Shown: one piece after another, positions 3 to 21,240 of the stretch
How the letters are laid out: each line of letters opens with the position of its first letter
How positions within the stretch are numbered: position 1 is the first letter of the stretch
Source of the DNA: an uncultured archaeon
GTDB lineage: Archaea; EX4484-52; JAADEF01
NCBI GenBank assembly: GCA_964407715.1
Contig: CAYOWP010000013.1
Location: forward strand, 1 to 26,335
DNA: 26,335 nucleotides
Direction of reading: 5' to 3'
Translations under genes and position numbers: made by a program
Notes under the pieces: model-generated
Seen by the model: only the letters and a program-made list of their open reading frames with translations
Told to the model about the DNA's origin: nothing
The model's database searches: none

Positions 3-1085
3 ACCAACATCACAGTGAAAGGTTCAGATACTTTAAAGAATAATGGGATTTTAGTTAATTGGGCAGATCATAGCACATTTACCAATATAATCTCAAATGA
101 TAATTATGCTGGAATGTATATTGATGCTGTTTATTATTCTACCTTTAAAAATATAACAGTGAACAATAACTATTATGGTATTTATCTTTTTGATGATTGT
201 GATTATGATACACTTACAAATATAACAGCAAAGAATAACTATTATGGAATTTATGTGCCTTATTATATGTGGGAGGTTATTATCGCAAATTCTACTATAT
301 CTAATAACACAGAATGTGGGATTTATTTATGTGACGCTTCTGATAATTATCTTTACAATAATTTTTTAAACAATATGAACAATACATATATTTGTGATCC
401 ATCTTCAAATCCAAATTACTGGAATACTTCATTGCACTCTGGCACTAATATAGTAGGAGGGTCTCTCATAGGAGGTAATTTCTATGCTACCCCTTCAGGA
501 ACGGGATACTCGCAAATATGCAATGACACTGATAATAATGGAATATGCGACCAACCATATGTAATAGCATCTGGGAACATAGATTATTATCCTCTAGCGT
601 TATCAAAGACATATCCTTTAAATCCAAAAATCTATGTGGGAGAGCAATTGGCATGGAAATATGACGGATTCTTTACTAAAAGCGCAAAGATAGATATAAC
701 TCCTTACATACTTAATTATATCAACAATAATTGTTCTGGAACATTACCATGTACAATTCCAATAACATATAAAGCAGATTCTCGTGGAGGTATTAATATT
801 GTTGGGGATATCATATATAGAGGATATGTGGTAAGGGTCGAGAACATACTCTTTGAGAATGCAGGAATAAAGAACATAACTATCTATAGCAATGATTATA
901 AGAAAGTATGCTATACAAATCTCTCAAAGATATATGTTTTACCTCCTGGAGGAATAGGCATTTTCAGGATACCTTGCGATATACTGTGCAATAACATAAA
1001 AGACATAATAGTTGAAACCACGTGTGGTGTAAAGGATAAGCTATCAAGTCATCCTATAAGAGACAAGATTTTGTGGTGTGGATAA
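3..1085 (+). CDS. NosD/CASH right-handed beta-helix cell-surface protein, 5'-truncated by the window edge
   Basis: Repeated 'NITxxNNyYGIYl' beta-helix rungs. The cap 'GTNIVGGSLIGGNFY...CNDTDNNGICDQPY...NIDYYPL' is typical of archaeal NosD-domain surface proteins. The frame is open upstream of the GTG at 15 (ACC AAC ATC ACA), so the real start lies outside the window. Confidence 0.8.
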   Translation, partial: TNITVKGSDTLKNNGILVNWADHSTFTNIISNDNYAGMYIDAVYYSTFKNITVNNNYYGIYLFDDCDYDTLTNITAKNNYYGIYVPYYMWEVIIANSTISNNTECGIYLCDASDNYLYNNFLNNMNNTYICDPSSNPNYWNTSLHSGTNIVGGSLIGGNFYATPSGTGYSQICNDTDNNGICDQPYVIASGNIDYYPLALSKTYPLNPKIYVGEQLAWKYDGFFTKSAKIDITPYILNYINNNCSGTLPCTIPITYKADSRGGINIVGDIIYRGYVVRVENILFENAGIKNITIYSNDYKKVCYTNLSKIYVLPPGGIGIFRIPCDILCNNIKDIIVETTCGVKDKLSSHPIRDKILWCG

Positions 1086-5161: not shown

Positions 5162-5464
5162 TTAGACATATACTATCTCCTTTTTTATATTCTCTTTTAT
5201 TTCTTTTATCCTTATGGATTCTATTCCATAAGGAGTGAGTATATCTACTTTTCTACCAAATATATTTTCAAGAAAATCTATTAGTTTTCCTACATTTTCA
5301 AATGTTGCCTTTCCTTCCTCAAACTCCACAATAACATCTATATCGCTTCCTTTTTTTAATTCATCTCTTATTGCAGAGCCAAAAACACCTATTTTCTTAA
5401 CACCAAACTTTTTTATTTCTGTTAAATTTCTACTTAATATTTCAATAATTTCTTTTGATTTCAT
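5162..5464 (-). CDS. Minimal nucleotidyltransferase (MNT/MntA-type antitoxin)
   Basis: 100 aa; 'FGVKKIGVFGSAIRDE...SDIDVIVEF' GS...DxD motif; 'LENIFGRKVDIL'; ends EIVYV. Confidence 0.9.
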   Translation of the reverse strand: MKSKEIIEILSRNLTEIKKFGVKKIGVFGSAIRDELKKGSDIDVIVEFEEGKATFENVGKLIDFLENIFGRKVDILTPYGIESIRIKEIKENIKKEIVYV

Positions 5465-5536: not shown

Positions 5537-5911
5537 TTATTCAATTAGAACCGCGTTAACCACTCCTTCCTGACCAGGTCTGGATGTAACCTTTGCTTTA
5601 CCTAATTCAGTTTGAATAATGGCTCCTTTAGTAATTATTTTCTTTTTTACAAAGTGCATATTTGCTTTGTTTTCTATCACATCTAATATCTTTACCTTTT
5701 GAGCTTTGCCATCTTTGTTAATGATAGCATAATCAACAGAAACAGCTCTAACCTTTATATTTCCTCCCCTCACTCTAATAACTTTTATTTTTGGTTCACC
5801 TATTGTTGTATATGTTGGCTCTCTTCCTATTTCATATTTCTTATGCTTCCTATTTCTATGGTATAAACCACCTGTCTTTTTTCTCCTTGATCTACTATGC
5901 CACACAGCCAT
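5537..5911 (-). CDS. rps8e: 30S ribosomal protein S8e (eS8)
   Basis: MAVWHSRSRRKKTGG, RVRGGNIKVR, IITKGAIIQTELGKAKVTSRPGQEGVVNAVL. Confidence 0.97.
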   Translation of the reverse strand: MAVWHSRSRRKKTGGLYHRNRKHKKYEIGREPTYTTIGEPKIKVIRVRGGNIKVRAVSVDYAIINKDGKAQKVKILDVIENKANMHFVKKKIITKGAIIQTELGKAKVTSRPGQEGVVNAVLIE

Positions 5912-5947
5912 AAAGAATAAAATGATAGGTAATTTTAAATAATTTTT

Positions 5948-6387
5948 TTAACGCAAAAGTATTTTCTAAAAGGTTTTAGAGAAGTTAACCAAATTAAGGC
6001 TAGCTACTCTCAAACCTCTTTAGAAGATTATCTGCTTAGATGTGTTCTGTTGGAGCGTAATGTTTCCTCTTAACCAAAAATTTTTTTAATAAGATTGGTT
6101 AAAGGGAAGATATTACCATACCAAGCACATAAGAGCATGCTAACCTTTCTTCATGTTATCTGCTTCCTAAACGCTCGAAGAGGTTAGCATGCCATAAAGT
6201 GCCTTTGACATGGTATACTTCCCCTTAACCATATTTATTAAAAAATTGGTTAACGCGCAAAATCGCTAACACAAAGGCATTGCAGCATGCTATCCTCTTT
6301 TCGAGTTACCTGCTCTAAGACCTTTGGAAAAGCGATGTTCTTTGCGTTAACCATTTTATTAAAAAAATTTTTGGTTAGCGTGAAGAT
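5948..6387. repeat. Palindromic repeat array A: three hairpin units (5948-6075, 6097-6230, 6248-6352) separated by TTAACC-(A/T-rich)-GGTTAA linkers
   Basis: Arms read directly from the sequence: GCATGCTAACCT (6135-6146) pairs with AGGTTAGCATGC (6181-6192), and GGTTAACGC (6248-6256) pairs with GCGTTAACC (6344-6352). Linkers at 6070-6102, 6225-6253 and 6347-6378. Confidence 0.9.
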
Positions 6388-6390
6388 TCA

Positions 6391-6921
6391 TTATTCAATC
6401 CATAAGCAACCTTCTCTATCAAAAGAAGGAGCATATTTATCGCATAGATATGGGATTGCATATCCATTCTCAATAAGAAAATCATTAATATCTGTTCCGT
6501 TAAATATAACATATCCCAACAATCTATGATATTTATCACGTTCATATTTTTTATCTTGCAAGATAATAATGCTCTTGTTTTCTAACATTTCTTTTAGCAA
6601 TGAAATACTCTCATGATAACATCTTATGAGTATTGACATATTTTTCACATGATATTTAAATAACCATTTATTTACTCTCTCCTGAGGAGCAAGATCAGGA
6701 AAATCTATGCATTTTAATCTTAAACGTTCAACTCTACTTGTATTTAACACATAAACTTCAAAGGTATCACCATCTATCACTTTTAAAACCTTTGCATAAA
6801 GCATATATTGCCTTTGAGAATTAACCTTCTCATTAACATATAAAACGCTTATAAAAATCAATAGAAACACAAATATACAGCAAACTAGAAGGAATATCCT
6901 CATGAGAGATTTTCTCCTCAT
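6391..6921 (-). CDS. Thermonuclease (staphylococcal nuclease-like) with N-terminal membrane anchor
   Basis: 'KVIDGDTFEV', 'RLRLKCIDFPD', 'RDKYHRLLGYV', 'INDFLIENGYA'; hydrophobic N-terminus. Confidence 0.88.
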   Translation of the reverse strand: MRRKSLMRIFLLVCCIFVFLLIFISVLYVNEKVNSQRQYMLYAKVLKVIDGDTFEVYVLNTSRVERLRLKCIDFPDLAPQERVNKWLFKYHVKNMSILIRCYHESISLLKEMLENKSIIILQDKKYERDKYHRLLGYVIFNGTDINDFLIENGYAIPYLCDKYAPSFDREGCLWIE

Positions 6922-20742: not shown

Positions 20743-21240
20743 GGCATTGTCTAGCATTGTCCAATAATTCTTTATTGTTAAGCGGAAACATAACCTCTCA
20801 AAGAAGCGTATGGGAGCAGTTAACCCTTTGAATATGACTATGCTTCCCGTTAACAAATTGTCCAACAATTTTTGATAAGGATTTGTTAACGAGAAAATTC
20901 GTTCTTACAATCGCATTAGAGCATGCTATCCTTATCTTAAGGGGTTAGCTGCTTCCTAAACGCTTTATAAGGTTTGCTGCTCTGATGTGCTTCTTTAAGA
21001 GGTTACTTTTCCGCTTAACAAAATTTTGTTAATAAGGGAGTATTGGACAATGCCGCATTGTCTAATAATGTAGTTTGAGAAATTTGGTTAATGAGAAGAT
21101 ATTGCCATTCACTCAAGGATGAGAGTATGCTAACCAAACTTTCTAATAAAAAAGGTTGATGGAAAGTGTTGCATCTTATCAAAAGTTTGAAAGCATAATA
21201 ACCTGGCTAAAGGTTAACTGCTTTGAAATTTGTTAACAGA
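20743..21240. repeat. Palindromic repeat array B (same arm family as 5948-6387) containing a ~300-bp nested inverted repeat
   Basis: GCATTGTCCAATA (20754-20766) pairs with TATTGGACAATGC (21041-21053), and TGTTAAGCGGAAA (20776-20788) pairs with TTTCCGCTTAACA (21008-21020). Forward arms start at 20777, 20885, 21086 and 21154. Confidence 0.9.

Follow-up and report, generated by a model that had tools for sequence, protein, structure and literature searches.

What occupies the gap between the genes for ribosomal protein S8e (rpS8e) and an SNase-like nuclease in a 26,335-nt contig of an uncultured archaeon (CAYOWP010000013.1 of assembly GCA_964407715.1; GTDB lineage Archaea; EX4484-52; JAADEF01) is the question that this locus raises. 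The whole contig is referred to here as the window, and the region in question, positions 5948-6387, is an array in which inverted arms of ~49 nt, with heads that read GGTTAA and tails that read (G/C)TAACC, tile the gap. An initial annotation of the window had taken the array for a series of hairpin units selected for their structure, and had named a repetitive extragenic palindromic (REP)-like element and a structured-RNA or guide array among the candidates. [quoted passage not shown] It may be noted that the link of the family to genuine MITEs was missed by the initial annotation.

Anatomy of the array

Repeat finding recovered numerous inverted pairs in the gap along with the words that mark head and tail, and a profile made from genomic arms placed five arms in 6027-6352 with genome-wide E-values from 1.5e-6 to 4.6e-3, so that the inverted arms of ~49 nt with conserved ends described earlier stand. 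From left to right these are a type 0 arm on the minus strand (6027-6075; nhmmer 17.9 bits, E 0.0046), a type 1 arm on the plus strand (6097-6145; 26.4 bits, E 9.9e-6), a type 0 arm on the minus strand (6182-6230; 29.0 bits, E 1.5e-6), a type 1 arm on the plus strand (6248-6295; 25.8 bits, E 1.6e-5) and a type 1 arm on the minus strand (6305-6352; 28.5 bits, E 2.1e-6). Between them lie AT-rich head-to-head linkers of 21 nt (6076-6096) and 17 nt (6231-6247), a long tail-to-tail linker of 36 nt (6146-6181) that contains a 'mini-arm' at about 6155-6173 with a weak profile match, and a short tail-to-tail loop of 9 nt (6296-6304), which is of the modal class. On the left edge a degenerate plus-strand arm (envelope 5948-5990) is matched in its tail half only (5962-5990; local nhmmer E 0.008, with no match at the genome-wide threshold), and next to it is the tail half of a partial arm on the minus strand (5998-6025; local E 0.027) that was absent from the earlier list. 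On the right edge (6353-6387) an AT-rich linker is followed by a possible truncated arm head on the plus strand from 6373, where the profile gives no significant match (E 4) and a 17-nt direct repeat with 6095-6111 is 82% identical. Thus the 'short' arm listed earlier at 5948 is retained as a weak tail-half match, but for the 'truncated' one at 6373 the direct repeat is all that is left. The array is flanked on the left by the rpS8e gene (5537-5911, minus strand; Pfam PF01201, E 1.6e-38) and on the right by the SNase-like gene (6391-6921, minus strand; PF00565, E 9e-9).

On folding the 451-nt region against shuffles, we obtained z-scores of -12.0 for the plus strand and -12.2 for the minus strand. 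The hairpin potential of the region is far above chance, and it is alike on both strands. The minus strand is more stable by 6.9 kcal/mol (~5%), a difference that picks no strand.

A repeat family spread over the genome

The host genome is assembled in 16 contigs (the window being C13) with 898,521 bases in total and is rated 92% complete. Contig C9 (44,012 bp) repeats part of C8 as its reverse complement, and all open reading frames (ORFs) are 100% identical; because of this assembly redundancy, genome-wide counts are inflated unless C9 is removed. A BLASTN search with the array region gave 219 matches, spread over all contigs, and the arm profile found 553 arms with C9 included. Excluding C9 leaves 518 arms, grouped into 139 clusters that contain 1-15 arms each; a lack of further genomic copies, which the initial annotation had named as counting against its reading, is thereby excluded. 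These clusters amount to 33,492 bp, i.e. 3.9% of 854,509 bp or 25% of the non-ORF DNA, when the latter is defined as lying outside ORFs of 90 aa or more. The density is ~600 arms per Mb, and with an ORF overlap of just 1.3% the placement of the clusters is intergenic.

Inside the clusters the orientation of the arms alternates strictly, and the linkers fall into a few classes. Tail-to-tail linkers are bimodal, with lengths of either 8-14 nt (mode 9, with 51 linkers of exactly 9 nt genome-wide) or 35-41 nt (mode 37); in the long form a 19-nt 'mini-arm' (an arm minus its middle) lies between a 9-nt loop and a further 9 nt. Head-to-head linkers are AT-rich, 15-25 nt long with a mode of 22, and contain recurrent T-runs and TTTA-like words. 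The arm consensus has the head GGTTAAC-GGGAA and the tail GCA-GCTAACC. These ends are nearly invariant, and positions 13-38 hold 0.2-1.6 bits, mostly less than 0.9. Clustering divides the arms into two types of 323 and 230 members (C9 included), and 313 of the 387 adjacent inverted pairs have partners of different type. Neighbouring arm pairs could form a hairpin or cruciform of ~105-135 nt.

Sister copies with terminal inverted repeats

In a sub-family with slightly different arm heads, the elements have a 16-nt terminal inverted repeat (TIR) at their two ends, and its core occurs 105 times (C9 included). When the 9-bp flanks of 36 TIR pairs were compared, 9 pairs matched in at least 8 of 9 positions at the exact element boundary, as against 0 of 36 at each of 8 other offsets. 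Thirteen copies of 134-390 bp have duplications that match in at least 7 of the 9 positions, and the target duplications are AT-rich. The shortest TIR copies are made up of one hairpin unit between two TIRs, and longer ones have up to four arms or are nested. One TIR-bounded MITE of ~300 bp is present in the window itself (20755-21055, plus strand; TIR match, with three arms at 20777-21019); its insertion site lies in another copy's terminal repeat, and the same 10-nt word is found on both its sides. A further arm starts at about 21085. The TIR-bearing sister copies have transposed and are true MITEs. Among the features by which MITEs are recognized, TIRs and target duplications are found in this sub-family, and the small size, the absence of coding capacity, the multiple copies and the intergenic location are found in the family as a whole; the array at 5948-6387 has inverted arms only, with no outer TIR.

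Partner matching, covariation and an RNA product

The variable middles had been read in the initial annotation as specific to each unit and as mirroring the partner arm. In a chimera test without control for arm type the native units were less stable than the chimeras (-35.7 vs -41.5 kcal/mol), and this is because the two arm types were mixed. On controlling for type, the chimeras less stable than the native unit made up a fraction of 0.508 for short-loop pairs (n = 70), 0.510 for long-loop pairs (n = 52) and 0.515 for head-to-head pairs (n = 104), so that genome-wide no partner effect is left. The middle identity of different-type arms is 0.395 for adjacent arms vs 0.404 for random ones. Within the array itself, the unit at 6097-6230 folds with -51.0 kcal/mol against swap means of -40.2 and -42.0 (8 of 120 and 18 of 120 swaps equal or better), and the unit at 6248-6352 with -36.1 kcal/mol against a same-type swap mean of -42.1 (83 of 120 swaps equal or better). 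Partner matching as a product of compensatory evolution was rejected, as type-controlled chimeras equal the natives.

The covariation that structural selection would lead one to expect was looked for in an alignment of 54 short-loop units, taken from the 70 different-type short-loop pairs as those within the retrieved loci. With default settings RNAalifold gave no consensus structure for these 54 units, and with relaxed settings it gave only the two stems that are conserved in sequence and hardly vary. In the pair count 87.5% of the cells are paired, and 8 pairs have changes on both sides vs 6.6 in shuffles (138 of 500 shuffles were as high); neither approach shows significant covariation. The hairpins follow from the inverted arrangement and the conserved ends, and not from compensatory change. 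The middles of same-type arms from different clusters are 54.5% identical, i.e. they are diverged homologues.

These results bear on the possibility that the array encodes structured small RNAs or processed guides made from one strand, in which case the functional products would be the hairpins, and their specificity would lie in the middles. The strong folding (z of about -12) is in keeping with this, as are the G-U pairs in the inner stem (18 of 54 units at one pair), and the AT-rich linkers could contain archaeal promoter or terminator words. But an Rfam scan of the whole window returned only two tRNAs at the gathering score, and in 5850-6450 the best match had 27.8 bits vs a threshold of 94; the best sub-threshold E-values belong to plant and animal microRNA precursor models, which are far under their thresholds. 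Both strands fold equally well, stems and both-side changes give the picture described above, and the partner-specific matching on which specific products would depend is not seen. Also, when the orientation of a cluster (as set by arm type) is compared with that of co-directional neighbour genes, 12 clusters run along and 17 against them, which is no bias. The guide or spacer idea was rejected since the middles are homologous within a type and are not unrelated spacers. The structured-RNA or guide-array candidate of the initial annotation therefore finds no backing, the evidence points to a DNA-level repeat over an RNA, and we consider an array of structured or guide RNAs highly improbable.

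Distribution and variation between assemblies

The phylum sample consisted of 42 genomes, all of one order and of 0.5-2.2 Mb. BLASTN found the family in 0 of 40 relatives, the arm pattern had 112 matches in the own genome and 0 in the 41 other phylum genomes as well as 0 in the reversed control, and the covariance model had 0 matches in the same 41 genomes, many of which are fragmented so that repeats may be under-assembled. In a wider search of 185,579 species genomes a strict arm pattern, which matches only 17 arms of the own genome, gave 0 matches. Metagenome contigs with multiple matches numbered only two, both 99% identical to the host genome, and the sequencing runs that contain this DNA are labelled as hydrothermal vent metagenomes, with no RNA run among those listed. 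Within the genomes and contigs searched, the family is private to this organism.

Two arrays differ between assemblies of the organism. In contigs from another sequencing run (X2), the long linker in unit 2 lacks ~28-30 nt (between 6150 and 6199), which corresponds to the mini-arm module. Between host contig C11 and a metagenome contig of this organism there are an indel of ~96 nt and clustered mismatches inside the array of C11, vs 8 mismatches over the remaining ~2,200 aligned bp outside it. Such repeats disrupt assembly in practice, and in the other runs the contigs end at the array. As a side observation, one metagenome contig links two host contigs at their starts, C1 (reversed, 99.9% identity) and C11 (99.1% identity), and could be used to scaffold both.

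Placement between genes and possible use by the host

Clusters are present in 47 of 139 divergent gaps (34%) vs 51 of 564 other gaps (8-10% by type), which gives an odds ratio of 5.1 (p 5e-12). This enrichment may be due to a tolerance of insertions, to a choice of AT-rich targets or to use by the host. The last would mean that a DNA-binding or architectural protein binds the arms with their conserved ends, or that the linkers and hairpins serve as promoter, terminator or insulator modules, and it can be combined with a selfish origin. Besides the enrichment itself, the near-invariant heads and tails with variable middles speak for such a use, as do the two arm types that alternate at a fixed spacing, which is expected of a paired binding site, and the recurrent T-run and TTTA-like words of the AT-rich head-to-head linkers. 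However, the family is absent from the 41 other phylum genomes, those of the same genus included, and a conserved function is therefore not required. Upstream of rpS8e in three relatives no arm was found, where it may be noted that the upstream gene in these relatives is not an SNase orthologue and the locus is therefore not a true empty site. The clusters also vary from 1 to 15 arms and stand in no set relationship to genes, a search for a binding partner of the arms has no protein to show, and insertion tolerance or AT-rich target choice can explain the preference for divergent gaps. On balance we regard host-used DNA elements as an unlikely explanation of the array.

On the other side of rpS8e, directly downstream, the window has a gene for a minimal nucleotidyltransferase of 100 aa (NTP_transf_2/Polbeta; 5162-5464, minus strand), which might belong to a toxin-antitoxin-like pair as its MNT half.

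Mobilising enzyme and proposed origin

Several observations, on the transposase and on the clusters themselves, weigh against the selfish, MITE-related explanation of the array. In a Pfam six-frame search of the 92%-complete genome, Y1_Tnp (PF01797), DDE_Tnp_IS1, DDE_Tnp_1, Transposase_mut, DDE_Tnp_ISL3, rve and DDE_Tnp_IS1595 had no match with E <= 1; all matches to the TnpB zinc-ribbon family were sub-threshold, and the control search for Y1_Tnp was positive in 10 of 14 genomes. The paired TIR is absent from the other genomes and the viral contigs searched. The TIR word does occur elsewhere, in 32 genome loci and 88 viral stretches of unrelated taxa, as single and unpaired matches, and at none of the 112 loci checked (the 32 genome loci and 80 of the 88 viral stretches) was an inverted partner or an arm found. 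Also, of the 55 clusters that hold at least four arms, 49 lack any TIR within 60 bp, and no target duplication that convinces is seen where TIR-less clusters end, the matches being at chance level in AT-rich DNA. Within a cluster same-type arms are only a little more alike than between clusters (0.60 vs 0.545), and therefore most clusters are not recent tandem duplications. The differences in the X2 linker and in the C11 array could be artefacts of repeat assembly. Finally, the conserved ends with drifting middles and the enrichment in divergent gaps could reflect a host function.

Among the other candidates for a parent element, the single tyrosine recombinase (C1:72424-72912) stands alone and has no tie to the repeats. 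Eight ORFs have arms on both sides; five of these have Pfam domains unrelated to transposition, and the three others, which are of unknown nature, have no transposase signature. The multi-copy ORFs were tried as a parent insertion sequence (IS) and rejected: they are beta-helix/NosD-like, AAA_14/DUF4143 or tail-fibre-like surface proteins or are unknown, and none is transposase-like. A TIR starting GGnnnTG together with 9-bp duplications resembles what we take to be the pattern of the IS1 family, for which the domain search was negative, and no known IS or MITE match for the family was found.

Some of the multi-copy ORFs may be recorded here for their own sake. The NosD/right-handed beta-helix paralogues (window 114-1085; C3:37241-39127; C10:16892-18421; C10:33854-36403; C8:5676-7947) are 51-81% identical, large, and probably surface proteins; one copy adjoins a MITE. 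An ORF of 110 aa is found in three copies that are 99-100% identical (C2:111212-111544, C3:39137-39469, C14:18572-18904), with no Pfam or NCBIfam match and a weak PHROG match of unknown function (E 0.0032); the copy on C14 starts ~70 bp from a MITE end. Five paralogues of ~400 aa (C10:13385-14632, C11:16363-17805, C1:29852-31246, C5:59865-61073, C7:39577-40674) have no Pfam family and show PHROG tail-fibre-like repeats, which makes them candidate adhesins rather than transposases.

For the origin of the selfish repeat we propose that the family was seeded by transposition with a transposase supplied in trans, which would be absent from the assembled 92% of the genome and which, as the TIR and the 9-bp duplication suggest, may have been of the cut-and-paste DDE type. 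TIR-less clusters such as the one at 5948-6387 would then have grown or shrunk as whole modules were locally duplicated, deleted or recombined, and the clusters would persist mainly in divergent gaps owing to insertion tolerance or AT-rich targets. Same-type arms that are at least 90% identical were counted at steps of 2, 4 and 6 within clusters and found in 9 of 237, 7 of 129 and 4 of 64 cases, vs 27 of 4000 between clusters, which is an enrichment within clusters. Small symbiont-type archaeal genomes are thought to be streamlined, and yet a single private repeat makes up a quarter of the non-coding DNA here.

Comparison with known systems

With CRISPR arrays (clustered short palindromic repeats, regularly interspaced) the array shares regularly spaced short repeats in non-coding DNA. 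CRISPR arrays have direct repeats with unique spacers of similar length, whereas here the repeats are inverted, the linkers of 9-37 nt belong to a few fixed classes and there are 139 loci; in the Rfam scan the CRISPR repeat model reached 17.1 bits vs a threshold of 38.

The REP and BIME sequences of enterobacteria and pseudomonads are closer, being likewise extragenic high-copy units with strict alternation, two types and few linker classes, and alternating extragenic clusters with defined linkers are what we find. REP units favour the 3′ ends of genes, in contrast to the clusters here, which favour divergent, promoter-side gaps; also REP/BIME are bacterial and the present family is in an archaeon. 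IS200/IS605-type enzymes are not known to make TIRs or 9-bp target duplications, both of which are carried by related copies here. BIMEs have been described as having alternating orientation, two unit types and few linker classes (PMC2817692, PMC3733652), and REP units as imperfect palindromes of 20-40 nt with a GTAG (or CGTC) end tag (PMC3733652). Against this, the arms here are 49 nt long, and single arms are not palindromes, as their DNA fold has -3.01 vs -2.81 kcal/mol in shuffles, and pairing between the two termini of one arm is seen in only 75 of 408. At the arm ends, which are GGTTAA and TAACC, there is no GTAG or CGTC tag, and no gene was found for a Y1 (IS200/IS605-like) REP-associated tyrosine transposase (RAYT), which in REP/BIME genomes usually has the units on its flanks; PF01797 had no match in the search of the host genome given above. 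The family thus fails the defining tests for REP/BIME proper. The REP/BIME-like candidate of the initial annotation remains the closest description of the layout, but its argument from partner mirroring fails, and the enzyme, the palindromes and the tag of REP/BIME proper were not found.

A true REP/BIME system would be one in which the arms are single-stranded DNA substrates of a RAYT-like Y1 (HUH) transposase that copies inverted doublets. REPINs are such inverted doublets forming long hairpins (PMC3116915), and the inverted doublets here form long hairpins as well. Yet the missing Y1_Tnp, the lack of palindromes and tags, the arm length, and the related copies with TIRs and 9-bp duplications all stand against it, and we give this system very little probability. 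An archaeal counterpart of REP/BIME that is independent of RAYT is also quite unlikely; in it the arm ends GGTTAAC/GCTAACC would be putative recognition or cleavage sites of an undescribed enzyme, the two types would be assembled into alternating arrays, and one divergent promoter gap in three would have kept its array through effects on transcription or DNA topology. The enzyme could be encoded by the host, lie in the unassembled 8% or come from a partner or virus.

Prokaryotic MITEs include Correia/NEMIS, RPE and the Sulfolobus SM elements. The family resembles these in being small, non-coding, intergenic, multi-copy and taxon-specific, with one sub-family that has 16-nt TIRs and 9-bp duplications. 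It differs in that most copies, the array at 5948-6387 included, have no outer TIR or detectable target duplication, that these TIR-less copies build alternating arrays of up to 15 arms, and that no parent IS or transposase was found for it. Prokaryotic MITEs as a class have been reviewed (PMC11602168, PMC10969869), and in a census MITE families are taxon-specific, reach a maximum of 146 MITEs per Mb in archaea and make up as much as 1.23% of endosymbiont genomes (PMC11602168). With ~600 arms per Mb and 3.9% of the genome, the present family is above the archaeal maxima given there, where it should be borne in mind that the counting methods differ. Therefore, by uniting the TIR and target duplication of MITEs with BIME-like alternating arrays of two types, which are usually kept apart, and doing so in an archaeon in which no RAYT was found, the family could show how such arrays form.

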